A stretch of DNA of 64,000 nucleotides from Dehalococcoidia bacterium (lineage in GTDB: Bacteria > Chloroflexota > Dehalococcoidia > Bin125), in NCBI GenBank assembly GCA_963663235.2, contig CAXXNO010000012.1:288001-352000 (forward strand), read 5' to 3'. The notes beneath the pieces were generated by a model. The model was not told the origin of the DNA. It did no database searches and was given only the letters and a program-made list of their open reading frames with translations. Of the stretch, positions 22,668-60,750 are shown piece after piece (the stretch's first letter is position 1; every line of letters begins with the position of its first letter). The translations under genes and the position numbers were made by a program.

Positions 22668-23879
22668 TCAACCGCAAGGATTGAGAGGCGTCCCACACGG
22701 GATCTCAATCTCTAGTGCCGTCTCCGTGACGACCCACAAGACGTCACCGTCGATCAGAGCGAAGTTGGTTTGGCCCAGCGCCGGGATGAACGAGATCCAG
22801 CTCACAGCAGTGGCGTTGAACAGCCAGGCGATCTTGACCGTGCCGAACACGTCCGCCGCCTGCGCCGGCCCGAACGGCCAGAACACGAACTGCCCGCCCG
22901 CGTTCAACACGAGGATGTTGAAAGCCTCAGGCTCCGGCGCGCCGTCTCCGTTCTCGGGCTCACCGTCTCCCGCAGGCACATTCGCGACGATCTGGCCGCG
23001 AATCTCACCCGCCGGGATGGCCACGGTGTGGACGTTCACGTAGGCGTTGCCCGCCTCCATCTCCGCAACCAGGTCGGCGATGGTCCCGCCTTCCAGCGGG
23101 CCGATGAGATCGGCGGCGGTGATAGTGCCCGGCACCTGCACGCCGTCCACGCCTTCCGCGACAAGGCCGAAGAGGAACGCCGTGACCGGCCCGTTGTCAT
23201 CGGCCGGCCCGATGTGGATGTGCGCCTGCGTCACGCCGATGATGTCTCTCGCCACGAGCTCGAAGGAAATCGTGTCGCCCTCCAGCGTCGCGTCGAACGA
23301 CCCGCTCCCGTCCGTTTCGGTGGGGGGCACCTCTGCGCCGCCGCTCAGCGTGGCGCTGAACGTCTCCTCCGGCGGAATCCCGACAATCTGGCCGCGAATC
23401 TCACCCCCCGCGTTGACCAGGGTGTGGACGTTCACGTAGGCGTTGCCCGCCCGCATCTCCGCAACCAGGTCGGCGATGGTCCCGCCTTCCAGCGGGCCGA
23501 TGAGATCGGCCGCGGTCAGGGTGCCGTCGGCATCCACGCCGTCCACACCTTCCTCGACAAGGCCGAAGAGGAACGCCGCGACCGGCCCGGTGTCATCGGC
23601 CGGCCCGATGTGGATGTGCGCCTGCGTCACGCCGACGATATCCGTGGCCGCGAGCCCGAAGGCAATCGTCTCGCCGTCCTGGCCAACCTGCAGCGTCGCC
23701 GCGAACGACCCGGTCCCGTCCGATTCGACGGGGGGCACCTCGGCGTCGCCGCTCAGCGTAGCGCTGAACTGCACCGCCTGCGCCTGAACCTGCGCCCCGC
23801 CGCTCAACCCCAGGGCCAGCCCAATGGCGACCGCCAAGCCTGCCATCACCGTCGTCGCCATCCCTAGTCGAAACCGCAT
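22668..23879 (-). CDS. Exported protein with two CHRD domains and C-terminal GGQFVFW module
   Basis: Signal peptide (VQA-QA); two CHRD repeats (LSG..EVPP, AHIH, YVNVHT...GEIRGQ); acidic linker; ~70-aa terminal module. ATG after GGGGAG. Confidence 0.9.
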   Translation of the reverse strand: MRFRLGMATTVMAGLAVAIGLALGLSGGAQVQAQAVQFSATLSGDAEVPPVESDGTGSFAATLQVGQDGETIAFGLAATDIVGVTQAHIHIGPADDTGPVAAFLFGLVEEGVDGVDADGTLTAADLIGPLEGGTIADLVAEMRAGNAYVNVHTLVNAGGEIRGQIVGIPPEETFSATLSGGAEVPPTETDGSGSFDATLEGDTISFELVARDIIGVTQAHIHIGPADDNGPVTAFLFGLVAEGVDGVQVPGTITAADLIGPLEGGTIADLVAEMEAGNAYVNVHTVAIPAGEIRGQIVANVPAGDGEPENGDGAPEPEAFNILVLNAGGQFVFWPFGPAQAADVFGTVKIAWLFNATAVSWISFIPALGQTNFALIDGDVLWVVTETALEIEIPCGTPLNPCG

Positions 23880-24292
23880 GGGCTTCTCCCCTTCCAGCAC
23901 GTGGCTCCGCTCCGGCCGGGACCGGCCCGAGCCCGCTGAGGCTAACCACTGCCTGGTCGTGCCGCAACCCATCGGGTCGGGCGGCGCGGGTCAGCGCCTC
24001 CTTGGGGGAGGCCGGCTCCGCGCGGAAGGCGCGCCTCTGCTGCTGCGAGCGGTCCGGCTCAGAGTTCAACCTGGCGCCGAATGCGCTCCCGGTTCCGGCC
24101 ATCCCCGAGATCGGGCGCTCCGAGGCCGTCACGAACACCGCCGTCGACGCTCTATAGAACGTGCGGGTCGGTTGTCCGATGCTGCTCCCTGCTTCCGGTC
24201 GCGCCCGTGGCAGCCCGGCGCCGGCCCGCACCTTCAGCACCTACCGCGCGGGACCGACCGCTCGGTAGGCTGGGCGTCCGCCCGCGCCCGCG

Positions 24293-25366
24293 TCAATCGC
24301 GAGCCGCGGCCGGCCTTCCTCCGAGACCGCCCCGCGTCCCCGTCTCCGACGCGGCATCCGCCCCCGGCAGCTCGAACTCCTTCGCCAGCAACTCGTATGA
24401 CCGCAGCCGCGGCTCGAAGTCGTAGGTGATCGTCACGATCACGAACTCGTCGACGCCGTAAGCCTGGGCCAACTGCTCCAAGCGGTCGCGCACCTGCCCC
24501 GGCGTCCCGTGGATCGACCTGCCGCGCAGGTAGTCCAGGTACTCGCGCTCTTGATCCGTGTAGGGATACGAAAGCGCTTCCTCCACCGAGGGGATGCCCC
24601 GGTCTTGGATGCCACGATTGGCCTGGATCCGCCAGCACCAGCGGGTCCAGGAGAGCCGCTCAGCCTCCTCCTCCGTGTCGGCGCACACCACGAAGACGCC
24701 CAGGCTGACCCGCGGCTCTTCCAGCACGGGCGACGGCTGAAACGCGTCGCGGTAGGCGCGCACGACCCCCTCACCCCCATCCGGGCTGATGAACTGGGCG
24801 AAAGAGAAACCCCAGCCGATCTGGGCCGCGTAGTGCGCGCTCACGTTCGCCGACCCCAGCAGCCACAACTCGGGCATCCCCGCGCCGGGCGGCATGGCGT
24901 GGATGCCCTTGTACCGGTGGTCCGGCGGGAACTCATCGGCCAGGAAGTCATAGAGGTCCAGCAGTTGCTCGGGAAAATGCTCGATCCCTAACGCCCCGGG
25001 CCCGTGCGCCAGCGCTCGGGCGGTGCGCGTGTCGGCTCCCGGCGCCCGCCCGATCCCGAGGTCGATCCGGCCGGGGAACAGCGTCTCGAGCGTCCGAAAA
25101 AGCTCCGCCACCTTGAGCGGGCTGTAATGCGTCAGCATCACCCCGCCCGACCCGATCCGGATCCGCGACGTCCGAGCCGCCACTTGCGGGATGAGGATCT
25201 CCGGGGCGGGGCAGGCAAGCGAGCCGGTGTTGTGGTGCTCCGCCAGCCAGTAGCGGCCGTAACCCCAACGATCGGCAGCCTCCGCCAGCCGGAACGTCTC
25301 CGCGACCGCCGCCGCCGCGGTGCCGCCGTCTCGGACCGGAATCTGATCCAGAACGCCCAGCTTCAC
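24293..25366 (-). CDS. LLM class flavin-dependent oxidoreductase (YhbW/MsnO8-like)
   Basis: KLGVLDQ.P, YWLAEHHN, GSGGVMLTHYSP.KVAE.F..L..LFPGRIDLGIGRAPG. Confidence 0.92.
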   Translation of the reverse strand: MKLGVLDQIPVRDGGTAAAAVAETFRLAEAADRWGYGRYWLAEHHNTGSLACPAPEILIPQVAARTSRIRIGSGGVMLTHYSPLKVAELFRTLETLFPGRIDLGIGRAPGADTRTARALAHGPGALGIEHFPEQLLDLYDFLADEFPPDHRYKGIHAMPPGAGMPELWLLGSANVSAHYAAQIGWGFSFAQFISPDGGEGVVRAYRDAFQPSPVLEEPRVSLGVFVVCADTEEEAERLSWTRWCWRIQANRGIQDRGIPSVEEALSYPYTDQEREYLDYLRGRSIHGTPGQVRDRLEQLAQAYGVDEFVIVTITYDFEPRLRSYELLAKEFELPGADAASETGTRGGLGGRPAAARD

Positions 25367-25522
25367 GCGCGCTGCCCCTCGCCCGGCCACGACCCAGCAC
25401 GGGCCTCCGCGGCGACGGACGATCGGCCCGCGCGCCGGAAGCCCGCCTCGCGGCGACGGCTTCTGCTAGCCTCCGACTCCACGACGGAGATCGACGGGAC
25501 TTGCATCGGGAGAGCTACCGCC

Positions 25523-26299
25523 ATGACCACGTTCAGTGAGTATGCCAACAAGTACAACCACCTCAAGATGGAGCGCCGCGACGGCATCCTTCAGGTCACC
25601 GTACATACCGACGATGGGCCGCTCCAGTGGGGCCTTGTACCCCATCGCGAGTGCGCCGAGGCCTTCCGCGACATCGCCACCGACCGCGGCAACTCGGCCG
25701 TCATCCTCACCGGCGCCGGCGACGCCTTCTCCGGCCCCAAGGGCAACCCCGGCAGCCGCCCCAACGTCGAGGCCCGCGAGTGGGACGTCATCCACTGGGA
25801 AGGCCGCGAGTTGCTGTGGAACCTGCTGAGCATCGAGGTGCCGATGATCAGCGCCATCAACGGCCCCGCCTACCGCCACCCCGAGATTCCGCTGCTCTGC
25901 GATATCGTCCTCGCCGCCGACGGCGCGCGCGTCCAGGACTCCGGCCACTTCATCAACGGCATGGTCCCGGGCGATGGCGTCCACATCGTCTTTCCGTTGC
26001 TCATGGGCTGGAACCGCGGCCGCTACTTTCTCATGACCGGCCAGGACCTCTCGGTGCAGGAAGCCAAAGAGGCGGGCCTTGTGAATGAGGTGCTCCCCCG
26101 CGACCAGTTGCTGCCCAGGGCTTGGGAGCTGGCCGAGCAGATCGTCAAGCAGCCACCGCTGACCATCCGCTACACCCGACTCCTCGTCACGCATTACCTG
26201 AAAAGCATGATGCACGACATGCTGGGCTACGGCCTGGCGCTGGAGGGCATGGCCCTGCTCGATACCCCGCGCGACGAGGGCTACAAGCTGCCCGAGTAG
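25523..26299 (+). CDS. Crotonase family, 6-oxocamphor hydrolase (beta-diketone hydrolase)-like
   Basis: ERRDGIL..HT..G.L.W, EGR.LL.NLL.IEVP, NGP..RHPE, QD..HF..G.VPGDG.H, RGRYFL.TGQ match the OCH subfamily. Confidence 0.85.
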   Translation: MTTFSEYANKYNHLKMERRDGILQVTVHTDDGPLQWGLVPHRECAEAFRDIATDRGNSAVILTGAGDAFSGPKGNPGSRPNVEAREWDVIHWEGRELLWNLLSIEVPMISAINGPAYRHPEIPLLCDIVLAADGARVQDSGHFINGMVPGDGVHIVFPLLMGWNRGRYFLMTGQDLSVQEAKEAGLVNEVLPRDQLLPRAWELAEQIVKQPPLTIRYTRLLVTHYLKSMMHDMLGYGLALEGMALLDTPRDEGYKLPE

Positions 26300-26342
26300 G
26301 ACCAGTCGTCGACGGGCATCGCCAAAGGCCCGCGATCGGCCG

Positions 26343-27377
26343 CTACCAGTCCTGCCGCCATTCGCCCGCGGCGCGGATCTGCCGCGCCGCCGGCAGCACC
26401 TCCTGCCCGAACCACTCGATCTGCTCCTGCACCTCCCGCACCGTGCCCGACGGCGCGTCGAAGATCAGGTTCACCAGCGAATACCCGGCCGCCGCGAACT
26501 TCCCTAGGTCCTCCAGCACCTGCTCCGCGGTCCCCGTGCAACGCGGGCGCCGCTTCTTCCGCGATAGCTCGTGGTCCGGCTGCGTCATGTACGCCGACGT
26601 GACCGTCCCCATGCGAAAGTCCGACAAGTCCCGCCCCACTCGCTCCGCTTCCCGCCGCACCGCCTCCTGCATCGCATCGAACATATTCGGCGGGTCGTAC
26701 GGCGCCTGGATCGCCGTATAGACCCCGTCGCACTGCTGCACCGCCCGACGCCCGCCCGCCGCTGTCAGCGCTCCCCAGACGATCGGTGGGTGCGGCTGCT
26801 GCACCGGCTTCGGCTCCATAGAGAGCTGCGCGAAGTCGTAGTACTCGCCCTGATACTCCACGTCGTGCTGCGACCACGCCGCCTTGTAGACGTCGATGCA
26901 TTCCACCGTCCGCGCCACGCGCTCCTCGAACCGCACCCCCAGCGCCGCGAACTCCTCCCGGTTCCAGCCGGGCCCGACCCCCAGGATCAGGCGGCCGTTG
27001 GACAGCACGTCCAGCGACGCCAACTGCCGCGCGTCGCTGAGCGGATGCCGGTACGGCGCGATCAGCACCCCGGGCGCGAAGCGGATCCGGCTGGTGCTCA
27101 CCGCCACCGCCGCCAGCACCACGAACGTGTCCAGGATGTTCACGTCGATGGGGTAGGCGCGCCGCGCCGTCGCATCCGGGTTCGTGGGGTGCGCTCCCAC
27201 GGTGTCCTTGGGCATCGTCACGTGATCGCCGACCCACACGGAGTGGTAGCCCAGCCGCTCGGCTTGCTGCGCCACCTGGACGGGGCGCATCTCCACCGCG
27301 GGCACGTTCTGCCAGAACCATGCCTTCTCGTCGCGCAGGCCCACCCCATGCGTGGGCATGTACAGCCCGATCTCCAT
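26343..27377 (-). CDS. LLM class (probably F420-dependent) oxidoreductase
   Basis: WVGDHV, PYRHPL..ARQLASLD.LSNGRL.LGVG.GW..EEF, PKPVQ.PHPPI. Confidence 0.92.
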   Translation of the reverse strand: MEIGLYMPTHGVGLRDEKAWFWQNVPAVEMRPVQVAQQAERLGYHSVWVGDHVTMPKDTVGAHPTNPDATARRAYPIDVNILDTFVVLAAVAVSTSRIRFAPGVLIAPYRHPLSDARQLASLDVLSNGRLILGVGPGWNREEFAALGVRFEERVARTVECIDVYKAAWSQHDVEYQGEYYDFAQLSMEPKPVQQPHPPIVWGALTAAGGRRAVQQCDGVYTAIQAPYDPPNMFDAMQEAVRREAERVGRDLSDFRMGTVTSAYMTQPDHELSRKKRRPRCTGTAEQVLEDLGKFAAAGYSLVNLIFDAPSGTVREVQEQIEWFGQEVLPAARQIRAAGEWRQDW

Positions 27378-27402
27378 CGCTGCCGCTCCTTCCGGGCGGG
27401 GC

Positions 27403-28629
27403 TCAGCCGATCACGCCCTCGATGGCCAGCTCGGCGATGCGGTCGTCGTCGTAGCCCAGACGCTGCTTCAGGATCTCGTGCGTGTGCTCGCCCAGATCCG
27501 GCGCGGGCAGCCGGATGCTGGCTGGGTGGTTGGCGAACTCGACCGGATGGTTCGCCAGCAGCTTCGGGCCCAGGCGCGGGTGGTCGAACTCGACCAGGTA
27601 CTCGTTGGCCCGCACGGCCGGATCGTCCGGCAGGTCGCTGATCCGCTGCACCCGATCGAAAATCAGGTCCGGTTCCGCGCCCAGCCGCCGCTCCCACTCG
27701 ACGCGCGGCTCTTGCTCGAATCGCTCCTGCAACACCCCGATCAGCTCCGCGTTGTTCGTGAACCGGCCCTCCACGATGGGAAAGCGCGGATCGTCGAGCA
27801 GCGCCGTGAGCTCCATCGCCCGACAGATCTGCGGCCAATCCCGCTGAACGTTGACGCAGGCGAGAAAGATCCATTCGTCGTCGCCGCAGCGGTACAGGTT
27901 GAAGAGGGGGTTGTTCGCGGTGTGCCGGTCGAACCGCGGCCAATCCGGGATCCCTTGCAGCATGCACGCCGTCACCGCCCAGTACTCCAGCCAGATGGAG
28001 GCCATCATGTGCGACACCTCCACCTTCTCGCCGACGCCCGTTCGATCCCGCGATGCCAGCGCCGCGACCAGGCCGTAGGCCAGCATGTTGGCGCCCATGC
28101 AGTCGGCCACGGCGACACTCTGCCAGTTGGGCGGGTCCCCGGGACGCCCGTTGCTCCACATCAGCCCGGAGCGCGCCTGCCCCACTGGGTCCAGCGCCGG
28201 CCGTCCCGCATCGGGGCCCCGGAGGCCGTGCCCGGAGGCGCTGCCGTAAATGATCTGCGGGTTCACCTTCTTGAGGTCCTCGTACCCCAGGCCCAGCCGA
28301 TCCAGCGCGCCGGGTCGATAGTTCTCCAGGAAGATATCGGCGTCCTTGACCAGATCCAGCAGCAACGCCCGGCCCCGCTCCGCCTTCAGGTCGATCGCGA
28401 TGGAGCGCTTGTTGCGGTTCATCGCCTCGAACATCAGGCTGCGACCGCCCGGCAGGCTCATGTCGTACCCGGCGTTCGACACCAGGTTGCGCCCGCTGTC
28501 CGGCCGGGTCGGGCTCTCGACCTTGATCACGTCCGCTCCCAGGTCGCCCAGCATCGCCCCCGCCAGCGGCCCCAGCATCCACAAGGTGCAATCGATCACG
28601 GTGACCCCGCTCAGCGGCCCGTCAGTCAT
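27403..28629 (-). CDS. CaiB/BaiF class III CoA transferase
   Basis: LGDLGADVIKVE, NRNKRSI, VADCMG; close paralog of 16735 and 18021. Confidence 0.94.
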   Translation of the reverse strand: MTDGPLSGVTVIDCTLWMLGPLAGAMLGDLGADVIKVESPTRPDSGRNLVSNAGYDMSLPGGRSLMFEAMNRNKRSIAIDLKAERGRALLLDLVKDADIFLENYRPGALDRLGLGYEDLKKVNPQIIYGSASGHGLRGPDAGRPALDPVGQARSGLMWSNGRPGDPPNWQSVAVADCMGANMLAYGLVAALASRDRTGVGEKVEVSHMMASIWLEYWAVTACMLQGIPDWPRFDRHTANNPLFNLYRCGDDEWIFLACVNVQRDWPQICRAMELTALLDDPRFPIVEGRFTNNAELIGVLQERFEQEPRVEWERRLGAEPDLIFDRVQRISDLPDDPAVRANEYLVEFDHPRLGPKLLANHPVEFANHPASIRLPAPDLGEHTHEILKQRLGYDDDRIAELAIEGVIG

Positions 28630-28743
28630 TTGCGGACTCCCTTTCGTCTCCGGCGTTACTGCGCCTCGGTGGCGGCATCGTAGGCGACAGCGCAGGCCCG
28701 CCGTCCTACGCCGGTGCTCTCCGCTTCCCGGCGCGAGGCGGCG

Positions 28744-29262
28744 TCAGACGCTGCTTGAGCCTTCCCGACGGAGATCGAACCATCTCTGGTCCGCAAGCAC
28801 CACCGAGGTTTCGATCTGCCGCTCGGGAACCGACCAGTATCGTTTCAGCAACCGCTCCTTCTCCTCGCCGCCGGCCAATCGAAAGCCGCGCTGCTCGTAG
28901 AACCGGATCGCCCACGTGGCGGCGGCCCAGGTGCCGATCAACAGCGGCCGGGCGCTCTCTTCGCAAAGCGCGGAGAGCAGCATGCCCCCAATGCCACGAC
29001 CGCGTTCGGCCGTGCGGACATAGGCGTGTCGGATCAGAGTCACGTCGAGACGATCTTGAATGCCCATGACGCCAAGGAGCTCGCCCTTCTCTTCGTAACC
29101 GGAAAAGACGACCCCGGCATCCAACTCCTGCCGCAGCTCGTCTCTGGGCATGTACGGCTCATTCCAGCGGTCTGCCGGAATGACCCCTTTGTACGCCTGG
29201 GCCGCGTCGATGATGATCGCGTAGATGGCTTCGAATTCGCCGTCGCCGCATCGGCGGATCAT
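28744..29262 (-). CDS. GNAT family N-acetyltransferase
   Basis: LIRHAYV....RGRGIG acetyl-CoA motif; GTW.AA.WAI.FY...GF. Confidence 0.9.
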   Translation of the reverse strand: MIRRCGDGEFEAIYAIIIDAAQAYKGVIPADRWNEPYMPRDELRQELDAGVVFSGYEEKGELLGVMGIQDRLDVTLIRHAYVRTAERGRGIGGMLLSALCEESARPLLIGTWAAATWAIRFYEQRGFRLAGGEEKERLLKRYWSVPERQIETSVVLADQRWFDLRREGSSSV

Positions 29263-29438
29263 GGCCGCGTCTTCCGCCTCCATCTCCAATGAGGCGGAAA
29301 GGCTAATCGACGGGGTTAACCTGTCAAGCCGGACCACCCGCCGCCTGGTCGGTGCGCCCCGGCCGCTGCCTGCCTGCGTAGAAAGCCTGCCTAAAATCGA
29401 CGACAATCTCATCCGGAGAACCCCAGCCGAAAGCGCCC

Positions 29439-35872: not shown

Positions 35873-37216
35873 CTACGTCCGGCGGCGAATCAGCACGAAG
35901 CCGCCCGCCGCCGCCGCGGCGGCAGCGACGATCCCCAGGATGACCGCGAGCGCGACCGAAGACCCGTCGGACGCGATGGGCTGATCGAGCCCACCGGAGC
36001 CCGTGGCCGGCAGCCCGCCCGGCGGAGCCACGCCACCGCCGGGGTCGCCAATGCTCCCGGGGTCCCCACCCTCGCCGCCGGGCCCGACACCCGCCCCGGG
36101 GTCGCCAATACTCCCGGGATCTTCACCGCCCGTGCCCGGCCCCTGGTCCGGCACATCAGGCGCACCGCCGATGCCGGACCCGTTCCCGATCTCATCGCCG
36201 TTCCCGTTCCCGTTTTCGTAGTTGTTGTCGATGAAGCACTCCGCCACCTCCGCCAGCGCGAGGGTGATGGTGCCGTCCGGCGCGCAATCCCCGCCGATCG
36301 AGACCTGCTCGTAACCCGGCGGACCGGGATCGTCTTCGCTGACCGTGTACTCGACGCCGGCATCGACCTCGGTTGCGTCGCCGCTCGTCACGACGCCTAC
36401 GCCGCCGTCGACGCGGAGCGTGAAGTCGCCTGGACCGGCGGTGCCACCGCCGTCGTTCGTCACGCGCTTGGTGACGATCAACTCCGGCGGCACATCATCG
36501 TTGGTGACCGTGCACGTCTTGTTATCTCCAGGCGCGAGCGTGATCGTGCCATCGGGCGCGCAATCCCCGCCGATCGTGCCCACATACTCCGGGCCGGGAT
36601 CGATTTCGCCGACCGTGTACACCACGCCCGGGCTGACGGTCACCGTCACACCGCTCCCCGTCGGGTTCCCGTTGAGGAACAGAGGAAAGTCGGCCTCGGT
36701 CGCCGTGCCGCCGTTGTCGTTGATCACGATCTTGGTGACGGTCAGCATCGGATCAGGGACGGTGGGGGTGTTGCGAAGCGTGCACTCGACGTCGCCTAGG
36801 GCGATCCGCACACGGAAGCATTCGCTCTCATCGGCAGTGTAACCGGGGGGGACGGTTTCCGTGACCGTACAAGTGTGATTGCTCTCGCTCCCCCCGACGC
36901 CCATCCAATTCAGCCACAGCGCCGCGCCCGGAGCAACCGTGCCGGTCACTGTCCGCTCCGGCGCAGCCGTGCTCCCGTCTTCGACGAGCGTTCCCGAGTC
37001 GCAAGTGACGCTAACTTCGACGGGGTCCGTGTTGCCGTCGTCGTATGTCTTTTCAATGTGGAGCATGCGCACGGCGCCCGTGAGGTGACCCGCGCTGCCT
37101 CCCGAGGGCGTCAGCAGCCCGATGCCCAGCGCGACCGCTGCGCCGAGGACCAGAGCCACCGCCATCGCCCGCCGCTGCCGGCGTGCCGCTTCGAAGACCT
37201 TCTCGTGACGACGCAT
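35873..37216 (-). CDS. LPXTG-type surface protein with repeated Ig/prealbumin-like domains
   Basis: Signal peptide; repeats LTVTK.V.ND.GGTA...DF.L...GGDC..DG.ITLA...C...ND; GN and GDPG low-complexity linker; LPATG, TM helix, RRRT tail. Confidence 0.88.
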   Translation of the reverse strand: MRRHEKVFEAARRQRRAMAVALVLGAAVALGIGLLTPSGGSAGHLTGAVRMLHIEKTYDDGNTDPVEVSVTCDSGTLVEDGSTAAPERTVTGTVAPGAALWLNWMGVGGSESNHTCTVTETVPPGYTADESECFRVRIALGDVECTLRNTPTVPDPMLTVTKIVINDNGGTATEADFPLFLNGNPTGSGVTVTVSPGVVYTVGEIDPGPEYVGTIGGDCAPDGTITLAPGDNKTCTVTNDDVPPELIVTKRVTNDGGGTAGPGDFTLRVDGGVGVVTSGDATEVDAGVEYTVSEDDPGPPGYEQVSIGGDCAPDGTITLALAEVAECFIDNNYENGNGNGDEIGNGSGIGGAPDVPDQGPGTGGEDPGSIGDPGAGVGPGGEGGDPGSIGDPGGGVAPPGGLPATGSGGLDQPIASDGSSVALAVILGIVAAAAAAAGGFVLIRRRT

Positions 37217-37280
37217 CCAGCACCCCCTAGCGGATCGGAAATCGTCGCGGCCCCGCCTGGAGCGGTTCGCCGCAGTGCCC

Positions 37281-38821
37281 CTACGTCCGGCGGCGAATCA
37301 GCACCAAGCCGCCCGCCGCCGCCGCCGCGACGATCCCCAGGATGACCGCGAGCGTGGCCGAAAACCCGTCGGTCGCGATGGGCTGATCGAGCCCACCGGA
37401 GCCCGTGGCCGGCAGCCCTGACGGCTGATCCAGGCCACCCGCCGGGTCCGGAAGGCCGCCCGGATCCTCACCGCCGGTCCCGGGGTCGCCGACGTCCCCG
37501 GGGTCTCCGCCGCCGGTGCCGGGCCGATCCCCGTTCCCGTTCCCATCACCGTTCCCGTTCCCGTTCCCGTTCCCGTCGTCGTCGTTATCGATGAAGCACT
37601 CCGCCGCCTCCGCCAGCGCGAGGGTGATGGTGCCGTCCGGCGCGCAATCCCCGCTGATCGAGACCTGCGTGTAGCCCAGCGGACCGGGATCGTCTTCGCC
37701 GACCGTGTACAGGACGTCGGCCATGACCTCGGTTGGGACGCCGCTCGTCACTTCGCGGCGGTCGACGCGGAGCGTGAAGTCGCTTGGAATGGCGGTGCCA
37801 CCGTCATCGTTCGTCACGCGCTTGGTGACGATCAACCTCGGCGGTATGTCGTCGTTGGTGATCGTGCAAAACCTGTTGTCTCCAGCCGCGATCGTGATCG
37901 TGCCATCGAGCGCGCAATCCCCGCCGACCGTGCCCACATAGTCCGGATTGGGATCTTCGATGATCGTGTGCACGCCCACGGCGACGGGGGTCGCCGAACC
38001 ACTCCCCGTCGGGACCCCGTCGATGAACAGCGTAAACTCGGCCACGGCCACGGCCCCGGTACCGCCGTCGTCGTTGATCACGATCTTGGTGACGGTCAAC
38101 GTTTACGGCACATCATCGTTGGTGATTGTGCAAAACCTGTTGTCGCCAAGCGCGAGCGTGATCGTGCCATCGGGCGCGCAATCCCCGCCGATCGTGCCCA
38201 CATAGCCCGGATTGGGATTTTCGCTGACCGTGTGCACGCCCGCGGTGACGGGGGTCGCCGAACCACTCCCCGTCGGGACCCCGTCGATGAACAGCGTAAA
38301 CTCGGCCACGGCCCCGGTACCGCCGTCGTTGTTGATCACGATCTTGGTGACGGTCAGGAACGTATCGCGCGTGTTTCGAAGCGTGCAGGTGACGTCGCCC
38401 CGGGCGATGTTCACACGGACACAGTCGCTCACATCGTTGGTGTAACCGGGGGGGCAGCGGTTTCCGTCACCGTGCAGGTGCCATCGATACCGCTCGCCGT
38501 TTCGCTCGTCCAATCCAGCAACAGCGGCGCGCCCGGCGCAACCGTGCCGTCCGCCGTCGCCGCCGGCGGAAGCGTGCTGCCCCGCTCGATGAGCGTTCCC
38601 GAGTCTCAAGTGACGTTGACATTGACGGGAGTCCTGCTGCCGTCGTCGTATGTCTTTTCGATGTCGAGCAGGTGCGTCCCCCCCGTCGGGTGAACCGCGC
38701 TGCCTCCCGAGGGCGTCAGCAGCCCGATGCCCAGCGCGACCGCCGCGCCAAGGACCAGAACCGCCGCCATCGCCCGCCGCGGCCTCCGTGCCGCTTCGAA
38801 GACCTTCTCGTGACCACGCAT
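37281..38821 (-). pseudogene. Disrupted tandem paralog of the LPXTG surface protein
   Basis: Same leader and LPATG-TM-RRRT end. TGA at 38606-38608 where the paralog has TGC, frameshift in the G run near 38450, in-frame TAA at 38103-38105. Confidence 0.85.
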
Positions 38822-51261: not shown

Positions 51262-51711
51262 CTAGCTCGGCCGCTTCCGGATCAGATAGGCGTGCATGCC
51301 CTCCAGGCAGAGCTCGCCGTGGTGGTTGGTGATCCGGCTCGTCAGACGCACCAACCCCATGTCTGTCTTCGGGACCAGTTCGCTCACCTCTAGCTCCGGC
51401 GTAATCGTGTCGCCGATCAGCACCGGCTTGAGGAATCGGGACGACTGCTCCAGGAACGCCACGATCGACCCCTCGATTAACGGGTTCAACGTCGAGGCCC
51501 CCGCCGCCGTCATCGATGCCAGCAGCAGCCCGTGCGTCACCCGCTTGCCGAAGCGGGTCCCCTTGGCGAACTCCTCGTCGTAGTGGATCGGGTTGTTGTC
51601 CCCGGTGAGCCCGGAGAAGAAAAGGAAGTGCGCGTCCGTCACCGTCTTGGACGGGATAGAGAACGTCTCCCCGATCTGGAAGTCCTCAAAGTACTTCGTC
51701 GCCTCTGTCAT
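51262..51711 (-). CDS. MaoC family dehydratase
   Basis: YFEDF, F..LTGD.NPIH.D.EFA, HG, FLKPV.IGDT. Confidence 0.92.
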   Translation of the reverse strand: MTEATKYFEDFQIGETFSIPSKTVTDAHFLFFSGLTGDNNPIHYDEEFAKGTRFGKRVTHGLLLASMTAAGASTLNPLIEGSIVAFLEQSSRFLKPVLIGDTITPELEVSELVPKTDMGLVRLTSRITNHHGELCLEGMHAYLIRKRPS

Positions 51712-51737
51712 CGCCTCTCCTGCCGCCGTTCCCGCCG

Positions 51738-52337: not shown

Positions 52338-52509
52338 CGCTTCCTCCTTGTGCTCCCACGGGACGCAGCGTGCGCCCGCCCCGAAACTGGTGCGAGGATC
52401 GCCGATGTCCCACAACATTTCAAGCGGGCATCGGCGTCTCGCTCGATGCCGCCCGCCTCTACAACCGCACGATCGCCCCCTGCGCCTCCAGCCGATGCCG
52501 CAGAGCTTC

Positions 52510-53477
52510 CTAGTGGGCCGCGTCGTGGTGTTCCGCCATGGGTCCGGCGCTCTCCGTATGGCCACGCTCCTTGAAGACTTCCTGCTCCAAGAAGTCGATC
52601 TCTCGCGGGTCCTCGCCGATAGGGCGCTGCTCAAGCTGGATGGTGGAGAAGTACGCCGCGTAGTCCTCGCGCAGCAGGCGCGTGATCCGTTCGAGTAACC
52701 CGGCGTCGGCCAACTCGTCGATACGCACGTGGGCCGACACGACGGTCTTGCCTGAGGTGAGGGTCCAGGCGTGGATATGGTGCATATCGACGGCCCCTGG
52801 AAGCGCCTCCACGTCGCGCTTGAGCCGGACCAGATCGAGATCCTTCGGCGTCGCCTCCAGGAAGATGTTCGTCGATTCCTTGATGATTCCCACCGAGGCC
52901 CAGAGCAGCAGCACACCGAACGCCATTCCGAGAATCGGGTCAATCTCCAGAAAACCCGTCGTCGCAATGACGATCGCGGCCACGATAATAATGAGACTGC
53001 CCACGAAGGTCTGCCCCACATGCCATATTGCCCCTTGGATATTCAGGTTGCCGCGCTGGCTTCGCAGCAGGAGAGTAAGCGCGATCACCTCCGTCACCAG
53101 CCCCCCGCCGGCGATGAGTAGCATCGGGACGGTTGCCAGGTCCTTGGGGTCGCTGAGTCGCAGCGCTCCCATCACAAAGACGAGAACCGCCATGCCGAGC
53201 AGGAAGAAGCCGTTGGCGAAGGCGCCGAGGACCTCCGCGCGCGGATGAGTCCGAAGGTCCGTGTGGGCGTCGCCGGCCTGCCAGCGAGGGACGCGGCCCC
53301 CATCGCGATCAGCACCCCGCCCACCGCCGAGAGCGTGTGGAAAGCGTCCGACAGCACAGCCACGGAGCCGATGAGCAGGCCCGCCGTGAGTTCGACGACG
53401 AAATAGATCCCTGTCAGAAGCGCGGAGACCTGCAGAGCGCGTGTTGTTCGACCGTCAAGGTGCTGGGCGTGTGCCAT
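52510..53477 (-). pseudogene. Cation diffusion facilitator (CzcD/ZitB-like) with 2-bp insertion near 53240
   Basis: SVAVLSDAFH, TFG..R(A)EVLGA..NG split by an extra CG in CGCGCGCG; NI.GA.WHV, D.HHIHAW, STIQLE. Confidence 0.85.
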
Positions 53478-53565
53478 TAGCGATGGCTAACCTACCAGCC
53501 TTGGCCTAGCGCGCGGCGGTGGGGCCCGAACTATACCTCCGCTCTGGGCTCGGCGCTGCCCGCCC

Positions 53566-54846
53566 CTACAGCCGCACGATCGCCCCCTGCGCCTCCAGCC
53601 GACGCCGCAGCGACGCCACGTCCAGCTCCTTGACCCCAACGCCCTCCTGCAACGCCATCGCCGCCGCCGTCCCCGCCGCCTGCCCCGTCGCCATGCACGG
53701 CGGGATCTCCTTGGTCGCGTGGTGCACTCGATGGTCCACCGAGATGCACCGGCCCGCCACCAGCACGTTGCTCAGCTCCTTCGGCAGCAGGCAGCGATAG
53801 GGGATCTGGTACAGCGCCTCGTATTTCGTCCAGTGCCCCGTCACCGCCACCGCGTCGTCGAACGCGCGGTCCATCTCCTCGCGTCGCAACACGTGCTCGC
53901 CCTGCAGGCGGCGGCTCTCCGTCACCCCCAACTGGTCGGCGATGTGGCAGAAGTGCGCCTTGGCGAAGCCGGGGACCTCCCGCCGCAGCCGGTCCGCCTC
54001 CTCCATCACCCGCTTCCGACCCTCCAGCTCCGCATAGGTCAGGTCCTCTGGCTTCGTCGCGTCGATCCGGCGCGAGATCTTTTCGGTCGCCCCCCAGGGC
54101 AGCAGCACCTTCCCCTCGCCGATGGTGCGGAAGAACCAGCCCCCCGCGTCGATCGCCGCCTCCGTCTCCTCCACCCCACCCATGCAGAACCACAGCCAGG
54201 GCAGCACCTCCGCCGTTTCATGGCGGCAGCCCGCCGCCGCCACGATGTCGCCGTCACCGCTCGCATCGATCACCACCCGCGCCAGCACCGCGAACCGCCC
54301 CGCCTTCGATTGGAACGTCACGCCCGTCACCCGGTCGTCTTCCACAATCGGGTCGGCCGCCCAGGCGTGCAGCAGCAGCCGCACGCCCGCCTCTTCCACC
54401 ATCTGGTTGAAGGCGAACTTCAGCTCCTCAGGCTCGTAGGCCACGGAGTAGCACACCCGGTGCGGTCCGCTGCCCCACACCAGCCCCCAGCGGGAGGCGT
54501 GTTTGACCAGCGCCTCGTCGTCGCTTCCCCACTCCGCCTCCGGCGGGAAGTACGCCGCGCCGCGCTTGGCCAGCCGGTCCGTCACCTCCTGGCACAGCCC
54601 GCCGACCACCTGCCGGCCCCGGCCGTCGTCCAGCGTCAAGAGGAGGATGATCAACCCGCCGGTGGCCAGCCCCCCCAAGTAGCCGTAGCGCTCCACCAGC
54701 ATGACGTCGGCGCCGTTGCGCGCCGCCGCCACCGCCGCCGACACCCCCGCCGCGCCCCCGCCCACCACCAGCACGTCCGCCTCCGCCCGCACCGGCGTCG
54801 ACCGCGACGGCTCCTGCACGAACGCTTGACCCTCTGACGACGTCAT
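53566..54846 (-). CDS. FAD-dependent oxidoreductase (FAD_oxidored family)
   Basis: DVLVVGGG.AG..AA, LGGLATGG, IDASGDGD, ESRR, IPYR.L.P, AGRCIS, GQAAG.AA. Confidence 0.9.
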   Translation of the reverse strand: MTSSEGQAFVQEPSRSTPVRAEADVLVVGGGAAGVSAAVAAARNGADVMLVERYGYLGGLATGGLIILLLTLDDGRGRQVVGGLCQEVTDRLAKRGAAYFPPEAEWGSDDEALVKHASRWGLVWGSGPHRVCYSVAYEPEELKFAFNQMVEEAGVRLLLHAWAADPIVEDDRVTGVTFQSKAGRFAVLARVVIDASGDGDIVAAAGCRHETAEVLPWLWFCMGGVEETEAAIDAGGWFFRTIGEGKVLLPWGATEKISRRIDATKPEDLTYAELEGRKRVMEEADRLRREVPGFAKAHFCHIADQLGVTESRRLQGEHVLRREEMDRAFDDAVAVTGHWTKYEALYQIPYRCLLPKELSNVLVAGRCISVDHRVHHATKEIPPCMATGQAAGTAAAMALQEGVGVKELDVASLRRRLEAQGAIVRL

Positions 54847-55065
54847 CGCTGCACTCCTCGCTCCACTCTCACTCCCCACCGGACGCCCGAACCGCTGGGG
54901 CGCGAGTTCGCGGCGTCGGTCACGCTACACGCCACCGCGATCCCTGTCCCGGCCGGATCGACGGCTCGCGGTGGAGGTCCACAACCTTCGAAAGCTGCAG
55001 GGCCCGTATTTGACCCGATGCGCCCGCGTGCCTAGGCTGCCGCATCAAGCGGAAAAGAGCCGCCC

Positions 55066-56797
55066 ATGAGGGCCTCGACCACTCGTCTGCATCTCCGGGC
55101 GGCGCTCGCAGTCCTCCTGTTTATGCTCGCTATCGCCGCCGCGTCGCACGGGCCGACGCTTCACGCCCAGGACGATGCCCAGCCGTCGGACTCAAGTCAG
55201 ACCCTCACGCTCAACGACGGCGGTCAATTCGTCTTCTGGTCCTTCGGTCCGTTCGACGCTGCCGACATCTTCGGCACCGTCAAGATCGCCTGGCGCTTCG
55301 ACCCCGACGCCGTCAACTGGACCGCCTTCATCCCCGCCCTCGGCGCCGTCAACTTCCCCATCGACGATGGCGACGTCCTCTGGATCGTCTCCGAGGGCGA
55401 CCAGGTCATCGACCTCGCGGGCGACGTTGTCACCGCCGACGATGGCAGCGCCACCCTCACCATCCCCCCCGGCGCGCTCCCCGAGGACGTCTCCCCGGAC
55501 GACATCCAGATCACAAACCTCACGGACCTCGTCCAAGTGGAGAGCGAAGACCCCGATGTGTCGCTCCTCGCCGCCTACCAACTGGAGCCGGACGGCCTCC
55601 AGCTTCAGAAGCCCGCCACCCTCGCCTTCACCGCCCCCATCGCTGATTAACGCCGTTGTCGTCGCCTACAACGTCTCCGACGCGGTCGAAGGCATCGAGA
55701 CCATCGACCTCGAACAGGACCCGGCCACCGGCCTCACATCAATCACGGCCGAGGTCGCCCACTTCAGCTTCGTCCCCTTCTTCCAGGAGGTCGGCGCCAA
55801 AGGCTTCATTCTGGAAGAGCCGCGCGAGGTCCCTGCGGGCCCCCACACCGTTGGCTCGACCTTCTCGGTCGTCTTTCCAATCACTCGCAGCGATGACTTT
55901 CGGCACGACGTGCGATTCACCATCACCATCCCCAACGGCCCCACCATCCGCGCCAGCATCGAGTTCCGCCCCAGGTCCGGGGGCAACTGGGGCGGCATAG
56001 GCCGCCCCACCACGCAGGGCCCCATCAGCCGCGTGGCCATGGGAACGTTCGACTTCCTCTGGCTCCTCCGCACCCAGCCGGACTTCAATTTCGCTGGTTC
56101 TTACAAGTGCGATGAGGCCGGCACCTACGAGTTCGACCTCGCTGCCAAGGCGCTCATCGACGCCAGGTATACCGTCGTCCTCTCCATCGACGGTTCCCTC
56201 CGCGCCGGTTCTGGCCGCGTCACCGCCGTCGGGCGCGACACGAAACAGCACTCCGGCCTCTGCTTCACCATCGTCGTGGATGACGACCGCTTCGGCTTCG
56301 CCCCCACGGACAACGAGATCCAGGTCGTGGGCGACTTCACGGACGGCGCCCGCACCCCAGAGTCCGAGGCCGCCGGGTGCATCCCTCTGGCCCGCAGATT
56401 CTTCTCCAATCTCCGCCTGGAGTTCGACTCTGAAGGCAACGTCCTGGTCATCGTGCAGCCCATCGTGAGTCAGCGCAGCACCCACCGCATCGACCCCGTG
56501 ACCGGGCAGTTCGTCGCTGACGTCTCCACCTTCCCCGTCGCCACCGTTCCTGGCGGCGCCTTCGGCGGCCCGGGACCGTTCTTCGATCCGGACACCTTCT
56601 ATAGCGGCGACCCGGATCCCTTCGCCGTCGAGGTCGACCGCGTCCTCGGTTCTCTGGAGCAGTCTTAGAACCCCGACGGCTTCGGCTTCTACGCCGGGAC
56701 GGTCCTCTCCGACGGATCCATGACCAACGGCCGCCACGCCCACGTCGACCCCGACGGTTGCCGCTCCACGTGGCGCGTGGACTTCGAGGCCCGCTAA
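55066..56797 (+). pseudogene. Exported protein with N-terminal GGQFVFW module and ZU5-like (HFS) domain; frameshift near 55648 and probable in-frame TAG at 56666
   Basis: Signal peptide (LHA-Q); module at ~55201-55413; LTIPPGAL..LEPDG..F continues in another frame to AEVAHFS. Coding-like codons continue past TAG 56666-56668 to TAA 56797. Confidence 0.72.
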
Positions 56798-56846
56798 ATC
56801 TCGCCACGCGCTACGCTGCTCGCCGGGACGATAGGAGCCGCGCCTC

Positions 56847-57893
56847 GTGGACTTCGGCCTCTTCTACCAGCTGCCGGCCTGGCCCGGCCAGGATCCGGCC
56901 CAGCGCTACCGCGACACGCTCGATCAGATCGCGGCCGGCGACGACCTGGGCTTCGACGTCGCCTGGCTGGCCGAGATGCACTTCGCCCCCCAATTCTCGA
57001 TCATGCCCTCGCCGCTCGTCGTAGGCGCCGCCGTCGCCGCCCGCACGCAACGCATCCGCATCGGCATCGGCGTCACCCTCCTGCCGCTCCACGATCCCGT
57101 CCGCGTCGCCGAAGACACCGCGACCCTCGATATCATCAGTGGCGGCCGCCTGGAGTACGGCGTCGGCCGGGGAGCGCGGCGCCAGCACTTCGAAGGCTTC
57201 GGCATCCCCGTCGAGGAGCGCAACGATCGCTTCGTCGAAGCGCTGGAGGTCTTGCTCCGCGCCTGGAGCGACGAACCGCTCACCTATGACGGGCGCTTCT
57301 TCCACTACCGCGACGTCGACGTGATCCCCAAGCCCCTCCAGCGGCCCCGGCCCCGGACGCGGCTCGCCGTGAACAGTGACGACAGCGCCGAACGCGCGGC
57401 CCGCTCCGGCCTCCAGATCATGCTCACGCCGATCACGGCGTCGCACGAGATGCTGCTGAAACGCATCGACATCTACCGCCGCGGCCGCGCCGAGGCCGGG
57501 AGCCCCGCCACCCCAGACGACATCGCCGTGCTCCTCCCCTCCTTCGTGGCGCCGGACGGCGACACCGCCCGCGCCGGCATGGAAAAGAGCATCATGAGCT
57601 ACGTGCGCATCGTGGCGGAGGTGATGCTCGGCCCCTATCTCCACAAGGGTGCGCAGGGGCAGGCCCCCGCCCTGGCGGAGCGCCTCAGCACCATCACCTA
57701 CCCCGAGGTGCTCGACCTCATGTGCGCCACCGGCGATCCCGACGAGGTGACCGCGAGGATCCAAGAGGCCGTCGATGCCTACGGCGCCGGCCAGGTCATC
57801 TGCTGGTTCAACCCCGGCGGCCTCGTCGAGCATGACAAGGTCATCGACACCATGCGGCTCTTCATGGAGCAGGTCCGCCCGCGCTTCGCCTAA
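56847..57893 (+). CDS. LLM class flavin-dependent oxidoreductase
   Basis: WLAEMHF, LPLHDPVRVAED.ATLDI.SGGRL.YGVGRG, PKPLQ.P. Confidence 0.92.
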   Translation: MDFGLFYQLPAWPGQDPAQRYRDTLDQIAAGDDLGFDVAWLAEMHFAPQFSIMPSPLVVGAAVAARTQRIRIGIGVTLLPLHDPVRVAEDTATLDIISGGRLEYGVGRGARRQHFEGFGIPVEERNDRFVEALEVLLRAWSDEPLTYDGRFFHYRDVDVIPKPLQRPRPRTRLAVNSDDSAERAARSGLQIMLTPITASHEMLLKRIDIYRRGRAEAGSPATPDDIAVLLPSFVAPDGDTARAGMEKSIMSYVRIVAEVMLGPYLHKGAQGQAPALAERLSTITYPEVLDLMCATGDPDEVTARIQEAVDAYGAGQVICWFNPGGLVEHDKVIDTMRLFMEQVRPRFA

Positions 57894-57932
57894 TCGCCCC
57901 CGCCTGGCGCGCCCCACTCCTCCACCACCCAC

Positions 57933-57978
57933 CGGCCCTCACGATAAAAGTGAGGGCCGCCATGTCGGCGGCCCTCAC
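57933..57978. terminator. Overlapping alternative hairpins between convergent genes
   Basis: CGGCCCTCAC-gataaaa-GTGAGGGCCG(CC)-atgtc-GGCGGCCCTCAC: the central arm can pair with either flank. Confidence 0.65.
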
Positions 57979-58010
57979 ACTCTTGCTTGCCTTCGGTCGG
58001 GTGCGGAACC

Positions 58011-59168
58011 CTAGGCCAAGACCTCAATCTCCTGCGCCGTGTCGGAGACGACCCAGAGGACGTCACCGTCGGCCAGAGCGAAGTTGGTGATGCCCAATGC
58101 AGGAATGAACGAAAGCCAGCTCACAGCCGTCGCGTTGAACAACCAGGCGATCTTCACGCCCGTAAACACGTCCGCCGCGTTTGCCGGCCCGAACTGCCAG
58201 AACACGAACTGCCCGCCCGCGTTCAAGGTCAGCGTGCCGAGCAGCTCCGGCTCCGGCTCCGGCATGCCGTCGCCGTCGCCGTCGCCGTTCTCGGGCTCGC
58301 CGTCGCCCGCCGGGATGGCCACGGTGTGGACGTTCACGTAGGCGTTGCCCGCCTCCATCTCCGCAACCAGGTCGGCGATGGTCCCGCCTTCCAGCGGGCC
58401 GATGAGATCGGCGGCGGTGATAGTGCCCGGCACCTGCACGCCGTCCACGCCTTCCGCGACAAGGCCGAAGAGGAACGCCGTGACCGGCCCGTTGTCATCG
58501 GCCGGCCCGATGTGGATGTGCGCTTGCGTTACGCCGATAATGTCGACGGCCACGAGCTCGAAAGAGATCGTGTCGCCCTCCAGCGTCGCGTCGAACGACC
58601 CGCTCCCGGCCGTTTTGATGGCGGGCACCTCTGCGCCGCCGCTCAGCGTGGCGCTGAACGTCTCCTCCGGCGGAATCCCGACAATCTGGCCGCGAATCTC
58701 ACCCCCCGCGTTGACCAGGGTGTGGACGTTCACGTAGGCGTTGCCCGCTCGCATCTCCGCAACCAGGTCGGCGATGGTCCCGCCTTCCAGCGGGCCGACG
58801 AGATCGGCCGCGGTCAGGGTGCCGTCGGCATCCACGCCGTCCACGCCTTCCTCGACAAGGCCGAAGAGGAACGCCGTGACCGGCCCGGTGTCATCGGCCG
58901 GCCCGATGTGGATGTGCGCCTGCGTCACGCCGATGATGTCTATCGCCGCGAGCCCGAAGGAAATCGTGTCGCCCTCCAGCGTCGCCGCGAACGACCCGGT
59001 CCCGTCCGTTTCGATGGCGGGCACCTCGGCGCCGCCGCTCAGCGTAGCGCTGAACTACACCGCCTGCGCCTCAACCTGCCCCCCGCCCCACACCAGCACC
59101 GCCACGACGGCCGCGAGCGCCACCCCGATGACCGAGCCCCAGCGCAACTGTCCGATTTGGATTCCCAA
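58011..59168 (-). pseudogene. Second CHRD-CHRD-GGQFVFW protein, disrupted
   Basis: TTG start after GGAAGGAG; signal peptide; TAG at 59055-59057 where the paralog has CAG; 39-bp deletion removes EIRGQIVANVPAG from CHRD2. DNA nearly identical to ~23010-23790. Confidence 0.85.
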
Positions 59169-59388
59169 ACTCTCGCTCCTTCCGTTTACTGATCTCTGCA
59201 TCTGCGATCGGGCCGAAGTCTACGGCCCGGCCCTGTTCGTAGGCCGCCTTAGGATACGAAACCGGCGTCTAGCCCGATCATGCGCGATGCGCCAAAAGGC
59301 ACGGACACCTGCCTGGAGGTATCCCGTGAGACGCGCCGCGGCGAACCTTTTTACCTCGCGGTTACAGGCCGCCGGGCGCGCAAACGCC

Positions 59389-59428
59389 GCGAGGCCGTCC
59401 TCCCACACCGGCGGAAGAACGGCCTCGC
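59389..59428 (-). terminator. Strong hairpin downstream of the large surface-protein gene
   Basis: 16-bp stem that pairs fully only on the minus strand (two G-U pairs): GCGAGGCCGTTCTTCC-8 nt-GGGAGGACGGCCTCGC. Confidence 0.75.
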
Positions 59429-59485
59429 CACAGACACACATTCGCTTGGGGTTACGGCCCCTTCCAGGCTACCGCAGTACCCCGG

Positions 59486-60750
59486 CTACGCCGCGATTGG
59501 TATCGCCTGCGCCGTCTCCGAGACGATCCACAGCACGGCGCCGTCATTCAGGGCGAAGTTGATGATGCCCAACGGCGGAATGAACGACGTCCAGCTGACC
59601 GTGGTCGAGTCGAACAGCCAGGCGATCTTCACCACCCCGAACAGGTCCGCCGCCAGCGCCGGCCCGAACGTCCACAAGACGAACTGCCCGCCCGCCCGCA
59701 ACGTGAGGACCTCGGCGGCGGGCGGCTCTTCTACCACCTCGTCCACCGGCTCCTCTTCCGCTTCCTCCTCGACGATCTCCACCAGCAGCACCGTCGTCAG
59801 GTGCGGCAGCGATGCCTGCACCACCACCGGCGGGCCCAGCGAGACGACGGTCACCGTAATGACCTCCCCGTTCACCACCACCGCGCTCGTGGCAGGGTCG
59901 AACCCCGCCGGCAGCTCGAACTGCACCGTCACCGCGGTGGTCCCCCCGATGTTGCCGCCGAACTGATCGGAGATGCTGATCTCTACCCCGAACGCCATCG
60001 TCCCCGCCGGTAGCCCGGCCTCCGCCAGCGCAGCCGTGACATCCCCCGCCGTGGCCGGTTGCATGCTCACCGTGATGTCGGTGGTGTTCCCCGGCAGGTC
60101 CGCCACGTCGATCCCCACCGTCGTCCCCGCCCCGTCCGTCACGTTGACCACGGTCATCCCGTTCTCCGTGGTGCTCTCCGTGGCCAGGTTGATCGTCGCC
60201 CGCCCCGTCGTCGGGTCCACCGTGTTAATCCCCGTCGCCGGGTCGAATGTCCCCTCGTCCGCCAGCGCCTCCTCCAAGTCGGCCGCCGACGCGGCGAAGA
60301 CGAAGTTGTCGCCCGCGCTGGCGAAGTCGACCGTCCCCGTGCTGGAGGTCACCTGCACGTCCACGGTGGCCGCCGTCCGGGCGACGAGGGTCGCCCGGAT
60401 CTGGGTGTCGCTGAGCACGTTGAATGCGACGGCGACGCCGCCGAAGGTGACGCCCGTCGCCGCCGTGAAGTTGGTGCCGTTAATGATCACGATGCCGCCC
60501 AGGCTGGCCAGGACCACAGGAGGGGCGAGGGTGACGATGCCGGGGAAGACCGTCAAGACCCCGTCGTCGGTGACGTTGGTCGCCGTGCTGGGGTTGGTGT
60601 TGGTGGTGGTCATGGTATCCCCACCACCGGCCTGGCCGTTGACGTTCAGCGTCTCGAAGGCGGTGTAGCCAGTGGCTCCCTGCCCCGTCAGCGTCACTGT
60701 GGTGTTGGTGGTGGTGATGATGTCGTTGCCGCCGGTGCCGTTGACTTTGA
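59486..60750 (-). pseudogene. 3' fragment of a large surface/adhesin protein (beta-roll-like repeats, IPT/TIG domain, acidic linker, C-terminal GGQFVFW module)
   Basis: VNGTGGNDIIT..ETLNVNG repeat; IINGTNF..ATGVTFGG..VLSDTQI (IPT/TIG); EEEAEEEPVDE linker; no start or signal peptide before the junction near 60745. Confidence 0.75.

Follow-up and report, generated by a model that had tools for sequence, protein, structure and literature searches.

In a stretch of 64,000 nucleotides from a Dehalococcoidia bacterium (the window, G000:C12:288001-352000; genome G000 is 92% complete), four genes carry copies of a short module marked by the motif GGQFVFW, here called the GGQF module. On balance we favor a reading in which this module and a second domain, with the motif PxxFYG, act as a plug and socket that resemble dockerin and cohesin but are unrelated to them in sequence, and that would hold an S-layer-like protein and many passenger proteins at the cell surface. 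The reading draws on the export signals of the carriers, the absence of other anchors from them, the conserved order of the module and partner genes, the co-occurrence of the two domains among genomes, and the tails of the candidate anchor proteins.

A module without a family name on exported proteins

An earlier note, made from the letters of this DNA alone, had described four copies of the module on both strands, and all four exist as described (Table 1). Any two of them share 45-59 of 72 residues, and a profile built from the four finds its own copies at expectation values (E) of ~1e-40 to 1e-42 among the 36,584 six-frame open reading frames (ORFs) of the genome, so the similarity is not due to chance. 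A Pfam scan confirmed the CHRD pair and the TIG fragment, and one module does stand directly after a signal peptide. The two CHRD-pair carriers match PF07452 at E 3.6e-49 and 2.4e-36, and the TIG fragment matches PF01833 at E 3.8e-7; the ZU5-like region of the carrier starting at 55066 (PF00791, E 0.033) is under the cut-off. Neither a C-terminal transmembrane (TM) helix nor an LPxTG motif is present at the ends of the four window carriers, as had also been stated.

When the profile of the four copies was run on the genome, further copies were found, and after iteration the set comprised 26 ORFs with one GGQF module each. The claim that the module is terminal and works at either end holds for 12 C-terminal and nine N-terminal copies; the other five of the 26 are internal or lie 26-98 residues from an end. 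A signal-like N-terminus is present in 18 of the 26 ORFs versus 208 of 2267 called genes, where signal-like starts were scored by a crude hydropathy rule and the genome-wide gene set was scored by a similar rule; a few of the carriers’ signals look twin-arginine. The passengers include CHRD, Kelch and PD40 propellers, choice-of-anchor Q and X, DUF11, CARDB, and YHYH, with choice-of-anchor Q over the cut-off in three carriers and choice-of-anchor X in one. No recognizably cytoplasmic protein carries the module among the 26 genome copies, so that frequent occurrence in cytoplasmic proteins, named beforehand as a counter-test, is not seen there. No SLH, dockerin, or sorting-signal family was found in 53 carriers scanned. 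Family scans and signal counts thus agree that this is a domain without a family name on exported proteins that lack other anchors, and these proteins are many and unrelated, as a plug-and-socket arrangement demands.

The single unit was modeled with a predicted local distance difference test (pLDDT) of 95.6 and a predicted template modeling score (pTM) of 0.82, and consists mostly of strands with one short helix. A tandem model (pLDDT 94.6, pTM 0.87) forms a compact pair whose halves have the same order of strands and helix. Sequence searches of Pfam, NCBIfam, and the PDB with the module gave no match, the ESM Atlas returned unnamed clusters only, Foldseek with the module models gave nothing at E ≤ 0.001, and VIA-align with the single and tandem models found no solved chain at Z ≥ 5. 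The statement that the module belongs to no named family is borne out by the first three, and in Pfam, NCBIfam, PDB, Foldseek, and VIA-align there was no strong match to a characterized domain with another function. The best structural neighbor of the single unit is PDB 4xtt_B (RCK_C; Z 4.6, 61 aligned residues, root-mean-square deviation 2.6, 16% identity), a score below the level that VIA-align calls meaningful and equaled by HPr and PpnP; with the tandem model, RCK_C entries are again placed high (Z 4.1-4.3). At such scores any likeness to the RCK_C (TrkA-C) fold would be tentative, and we draw no functional conclusion from it; RCK_C itself is a cytoplasmic nucleotide sensor. Matches of the module to Kelch-design PDB entries were rejected as sums of 4-bit hairpin matches.

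Weak matches of the GGQF profile led to a second form, LxxGWNxVxW (GWN), which usually occurs as a tandem pair. A profile made without the GGQF copies finds 29 further ORFs in G000, whose products include subtilases, HtrA, amine oxidase, and double-psi beta-barrel (DPBB) proteins, and recovers the GGQF copies at E down to 3e-6. Profile-profile comparison links GGQF to GWN with a probability of 97.5 over 67 columns, and to the cross-phylum tandem alignment with a probability of 96.5. The kinship with LxxGWNLV repeats that had been suspected from the letters is thereby confirmed, and by these profiles the GGQF module is a single-unit subtype of a wider GWN domain without a family name.

The supposition that the module is lineage-specific stands for the GGQF subtype only, which is present in 12 of 18 other genomes of the same family and in none of 12 from other families. 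This subtype has 168 representatives in 1.84 billion, with a single unit in 123 of the 146 rescored. The parent domain occurs in several bacterial phyla and in archaea: 85 of 251 genomes of the class and 29 of 201 of the phylum carry it, and a scan of species genomes gave a cross-phylum set of 79 loci, from the best 80 of 144 confirmed. Bacterial titles in this set are Dehalococcoidia, Anaerolineae, Chloroflexia, Patescibacteria, Desulfobacteraceae, Syntrophorhabdaceae, Poribacteria, and Bacteroidota; archaeal titles are Bathyarchaeia, Methanosarcinales, Methanophagales, Methanocella, Nanoarchaeota, and Hadarchaeum, with others besides. The module lies within 10 residues of the C-terminus in 81 of 91 complete cross-phylum carriers, and none of the 91 ends in a TM helix. 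The GWN units of G000 are recovered, at E down to 5e-25, by a profile of 99 units taken from records whose titles do not name Chloroflexota. An early profile search of species-genome contigs with the GGQF alignment confirmed none of 46 candidates.

A candidate partner domain and competing readings

The second domain, likewise without a family name, spans ~95 residues with the consensus PxxPxxFYGxV...G.Y and usually stands right after a signal peptide. It was found with a seeded profile; a first clustering of neighbors showed no clean partner family, the domain being hidden in a large Ig-linked cluster. Comparison of 57 partner members with known families gave no cohesin and only weak Big_6 and CarboxypepD_reg matches, in two members each, and the partner profile has no match in the PDB (best E 0.033).

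A PxxFYG gene lies directly downstream of the carrier in 29 of the 79 cross-phylum loci, Patescibacteria, Hadarchaeum, and Methanoperedens records among them, and anywhere in the locus in 33. The partner is also directly downstream in five of eight module loci from a phylum-wide module search. Starting from the partner, 10 of 16 loci from genomes scored as module-negative (15 genomes, chosen as the strongest partner matches listed) have a divergent module in the adjacent or next gene. From 57 further partner loci 55 were classified, with the module upstream in 15, in the same ORF in 14, and in neither place within 1.5 kb in 26.

The partner is present in 81 of 85 module-positive class genomes versus 76 of 166 others, counts in which related genomes are not independent and some of the others are missed carriers. 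The tallies include an unpublished genome, G240, that is positive for partner and dockerin and negative for the module; without it they become 75/165, 156/250, and, for dockerin, 57/250, with every conclusion unaltered. Among dockerin-positive, module-negative genomes the partner occurs in 19 of 43, which is the background rate. Mutual exclusion of module and dockerin was considered and failed at the level of presence, with 15 shared genomes versus 19.6 expected. Three complete genomes of 1.4-1.5 Mb from genus g54 (G065, G085, and G137) have no module match; G065, the only one of them shown in the partner listing, also has no partner match, and a joint loss of both domains there is possible.

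We inspected the ends of the partner proteins. Among 46 complete proteins (57 examined, 11 cut by locus ends and excluded), five end in LPxTG with a TM helix, 17 in a TM helix, three in a dockerin-like repeat, and 21 in nothing recognized. A TM or LPxTG tail in 22 of 46 places the co-inherited partner on a cell-anchored protein, where a socket is expected. The Methanoperedens partner has a tail that we take to be PGF-CTERM-like, and the end regions of the partner proteins at L093, L069, and L154 are presumably CFI-box-CTERM-like. In Patescibacteria, the partner proteins have dockerin-like repeats, or other repeats without a name, at their ends. At L147:2089-5289 (plus strand) the end of the carrier looks circularly permuted, the first hairpin having moved to the C-terminus, and two LPVTG-tailed partner genes follow.

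In G000, positions C4:128746-129288 encode a signal, a PxxFYG domain, LPDTG, a TM helix, and RR, which by its sequence qualifies the product as a putative sortase substrate; the genome has two sortase (PF04203) matches over the cut-off. Nine of 14 genomes of the same family that were examined have a single-unit module gene, mostly of GG type, before a partner with a sortase-type tail. The product of this upstream gene, the client, is an exported, Arg-poor protein of 640-830 residues in these relatives and of up to 1500 in a sister family (ORFs of 640-1500 residues, 1.4-5% Arg, N-terminal signal). Its composition and position suggest that it is most likely an S-layer protein. The client gene of G000 (C4:~131450-129404, minus strand, L012 and upstream) is shattered by many frameshifts, with its terminal GGQF module still readable, and in G000 the spread of the tag may have gone along with loss of the main surface protein. 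Two sortase genes stand directly before a GGQF carrier at C12:460491-464499, and in G033 a sortase gene lies between the partner and module genes. MurA and sortase are over the cut-off in G000, G004, and G033; neither was found in G103 or G032, two module carriers that are 99-100% complete. Both G103 partners end in a plain TM helix. One protein, at G000:C4:30317-32509 (plus strand, L037), combines a partner domain and an LPNTG tail with two weak repeats that resemble the module.

Complex prediction with the GGQF and partner alignments gave a score of 0.55 (runs of 0.73, 0.50, and 0.55) versus 0.02 for the best control, rated as weak support. Agreement between the runs covers at least 94% of contacts, with a partner pLDDT of at least 89. 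The mark applied was reached by 116 of 157 solved pairs and two of 215 mismatched pairs; passes at or below 0.60 comprise only 18 solved pairs and both mismatches. Since the pair had been chosen beforehand from gene order, the score adds modestly to the independent evidence.

Taken together, these data suggest the following arrangement. The N-terminal signals indicate that the carriers are exported, and models predict that the module folds as a small beta-rich domain. Gene order, co-occurrence, and the complex prediction hint that the module plugs into a short anchor protein, namely into the PxxFYG domain at its outward-facing N-terminus. The tail signals suggest that sortase would attach this anchor to peptidoglycan in hosts that have both, and that a C-terminal membrane helix would hold it elsewhere. 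The founding client would be the product of the gene immediately before the anchor gene, a large, Arg-poor protein of beta-rich appearance and probably an S-layer protein. The GGQF subtype would have been copied onto ~25 other exported proteins in G000 that dock on the same kind of socket, and proteins with both domains may act as adaptors.

Several observations weigh against this arrangement. No partner lies directly downstream in 50 of the 79 loci, no module is upstream or in the same ORF within 1.5 kb in 26 of the 55 classified partner loci, and four of the 85 module-positive genomes have no partner match. No anchor is recognized on 21 of the 46 complete partner proteins, that of G032 among them. 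The partner occurs inside carriers in 14 of the 55 loci and in at least four of the six partner-domain ORFs of G000, so a generic surface domain would fit too. Surface genes cluster in islands, and the adjacency counts stand without a matched control. The complex score of 0.55 falls in a range of the predictor where passes are often wrong. The 99-unit profile scores the GGQF copies at E 0.025 at best, so that the link from GGQF to units outside Chloroflexota is transitive. The G000 client is tied to its counterparts by synteny and a marginal tblastn match (best E 2e-5, 32 residues). Finally, one small anchor gene must serve more than 50 clients, and its presumed main client is broken in G000.

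The strongest competing reading, which we regard as unlikely, is that the module binds a surface glycan or the S-layer lattice directly, in the manner of SLH, CWB2, or LysM, with PxxFYG as a habitual neighbor in surface-gene islands. It accounts equally well for export and terminal position, it suits the many carriers without an adjacent partner, and the four invariant Trp residues of the GGQF subtype could form a sugar-binding face. However, it leaves unexplained both the fixed order of module gene and then partner across domains of life and the co-occurrence in 81 of 85 genomes. Carriers that lack MurA, together with archaeal carriers, have no single known wall polymer in common. The presence of the module in the MurA-less G103 and G032 and in archaea rules out peptidoglycan as a universal ligand, a candidate that we therefore rejected. 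The wall-glycan binding proposed in the earlier note is disfavored as a general mechanism by the same archaea and by these two carriers, in which sortase was also not found. The description of exported carriers without other anchors is supported, while the evidence points to a protein partner instead of a glycan, a partner that the earlier note could not have seen.

Less probable still is a chain or pilus whose links are proteins with both domains joined head to tail, whose base is the protein with a sortase or TM tail, and whose tips are proteins with the module only, as in the WxL pilus. The WxL system was long read as wall-binding and is reported as a donor-strand pilus in the accessible part of a preprint (bioRxiv 10.64898/2026.10.17.759780). 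Fusions of partner and module are conserved (14 of 55 loci), G000 has one at C11:123546-124346, and the L147 unit, with its permuted appearance, could be read in the same way. However, the single unit is modeled as complete on its own and the tandem as compact, with no unpaired donor strand evident in the model summaries. The all-against-all comparison of neighbors revealed no second conserved neighbor such as a chaperone or prepilin peptidase, and the module is placed at either end of proteins or inside them.

We think it improbable that the module is an outward accessory domain that binds host, substrate, or other cells, or stabilizes its carrier, and does not retain proteins on their own cell. 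Many passengers are adhesin-like, and other C-terminal signals occur on a few of the carriers (L135 and the protein at G000:C4:30317-32509), but a single module that recurs on proteases, an oxidase, propellers, and beta-helices, with a second anchor hardly ever present, has the distribution of an anchor. A signal recognized by a secretion or processing machine, removed or modified like the type IX C-terminal domain, would match the C-terminal placement in 81 of 91 cross-phylum carriers and is nevertheless very improbable given nine N-terminal and five non-terminal copies of 26 in G000, hosts that include archaea and single-membrane bacteria, and no transporter or protease family recurring beside the module.

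Window carriers, broken genes, and neighboring loci

Table 1. Positions of the GGQF modules and their carriers within the window
Feature	Position	Strand	Description
GGQF module copy 1	22701..22916	-	Near C-terminus of first CHRD carrier; model pLDDT 95.6
Intact first CHRD carrier	22668..23879	-	Signal peptide, PF07452 x2, acidic/Pro linker, module
GGQF module copy 2	55201..55416	+	N-terminal, after signal peptide
55066 carrier	55066..56797	+	Signal peptide, module, weak ZU5-like region, further domains
GGQF module copy 3	58020..58235	-	C-terminal in second CHRD carrier
Second CHRD-pair carrier, probable pseudogene	58011..59168	-	88% DNA identity with first CHRD gene
GGQF module copy 4	59495..59710	-	C-terminal in TIG carrier
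5'-deleted TIG carrier	59486..60769	-	TIG domain, shared region, acidic linker, module; junction near 60765

In the second CHRD gene, an in-frame TAG at 59055-59057 separates the signal peptide from the CHRD domains, and 21 nucleotides are missing near the end of its second CHRD domain. Contigs of sequencing runs X1 and X2 span the TAG with no difference. A variant letter at this site sits ~30 bases from contig ends in all four runs and probably stems from a paralogue. Only in this assembly does the 55066 gene have a frameshift near 55647 and a stop at 56666. Contigs of all four runs, from four studies, lack the base near 55647 and have C at 56666, which leaves the gene intact there.

The TIG gene breaks off near 60765, at a junction with an oppositely oriented and likewise 5'-truncated sensor gene. 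This neighbor is a membrane sensor fragment at window 60765-61783 (plus strand), back to back with the TIG carrier, and has a region that we take to be PAS-like. X1 and X2 contigs bridge the junction; either run may be the source sample. A single deletion probably took the starts of both genes.

Across the genome, eight of the 26 GGQF carriers are broken genes, six with the signal in an upstream piece and two 5'-deleted. A third CHRD carrier at G000:C11:9778-11457 (plus strand, L017) contains a TAG within its module, with a YHYH domain after it. A near-identical pair of carrier and neighbor occurs at G000:C12:49804-52257 and C6:669-3683, both 5'-damaged. The region before the linker of the TIG carrier is also found in four other carriers of the genome; four of these five genes are broken, and the five may represent decay or silent cassettes.

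Elsewhere in the window, two tandem module-free proteins with LPATG-TM-RR ends are encoded at 35876-38414 (minus strand), and the upstream one looks split. Two short ORFs lie at 62049-62734 (plus strand), the first of which resembles a RelE/Gp49-type toxin of a toxin-antitoxin pair. Two tRNA matches are at 6-79 and 15260-15332 (plus strand).

Known systems and significance

Dockerin and cohesin, including non-cellulosomal pairs and those of sortase-anchored scaffoldins, combine a small terminal module on many unrelated exported proteins, a beta-rich partner on an anchored protein, and proteins with both. By analogy with these features, the system proposed here would work in the same way but is built from two domains without a family name; the likeness is one of architecture. 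The module is beta-rich and without EF-hand repeats, and searches of Pfam and the PDB with the partner profile yield no cohesin. Dockerin (PF00404) has no match in G000 or in any of 14 genomes of its family.

The SLH (PF00395), CWB2, LysM, and choline-binding repeats are likewise non-covalent anchors at either end of S-layer and accessory proteins, and they bind wall polymers. The module has no sequence match to them; it is carried also by hosts that lack peptidoglycan, and a protein is its candidate partner. SLH was absent from five genomes including G000, in scans that detected the controls, and from the module scans. In archaeal SlaA/SlaB a large surface protein is encoded just before a smaller membrane-anchored stalk protein, the same gene order as here, and family scans of the two domains gave no homology to it. 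In contrast to SlaA/SlaB, sortase can attach the anchor described here, and the binding module recurs on dozens of other proteins.

The WxL/Csc system and the Elr pilus, as far as the accessible text describes them, likewise combine an invariant attachment module with variable payloads and are encoded with an LPxTG protein. No Pfam match to WxL or DUF916/DUF3324 was found in the modules, 53 carriers, or 57 partners, the chaperone not having been searched for genome-wide. The accessible part of the preprint describes the WxL system as confined to Bacillota and in need of a chaperone (bioRxiv 10.64898/2026.10.17.759780).

In the literature searched, which leaves most subscription papers outside it, there is no description of the module or of the module-partner pair, and the accessible part of PMC13319060 contains nothing on the module. 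The available portion of one preprint reports new S-layer proteins in Tepidiformales and Paceibacterales with ‘many novel’ anchoring domains (bioRxiv 10.1101/2024.05.28.596244), and the module may be among these novel anchors. Cultured Tepidiforma has an S-layer outside the peptidoglycan, with unexplained protein complexes on both faces, according to the accessible part of its description (PMC10284905).

We propose, more tentatively than the docking itself, that this pair is common to Chloroflexota, Patescibacteria, other bacteria, and several archaeal groups. It would be an S-layer anchor with a swappable tail (a sortase signal, a membrane helix, or a PGF-CTERM-like end) that lets attachment survive the loss of peptidoglycan, and it would serve as a display tag for more than 50 proteins in one genome. 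Little is so far understood of how Dehalococcoidia, Patescibacteria, and several uncultured archaea keep S-layers and surface enzymes in place. If the module and its partner bind, they would constitute a cross-domain surface-display system with a new domain pair, which would give a role to many ‘hypothetical’ proteins and might provide an orthogonal tag-receptor pair.

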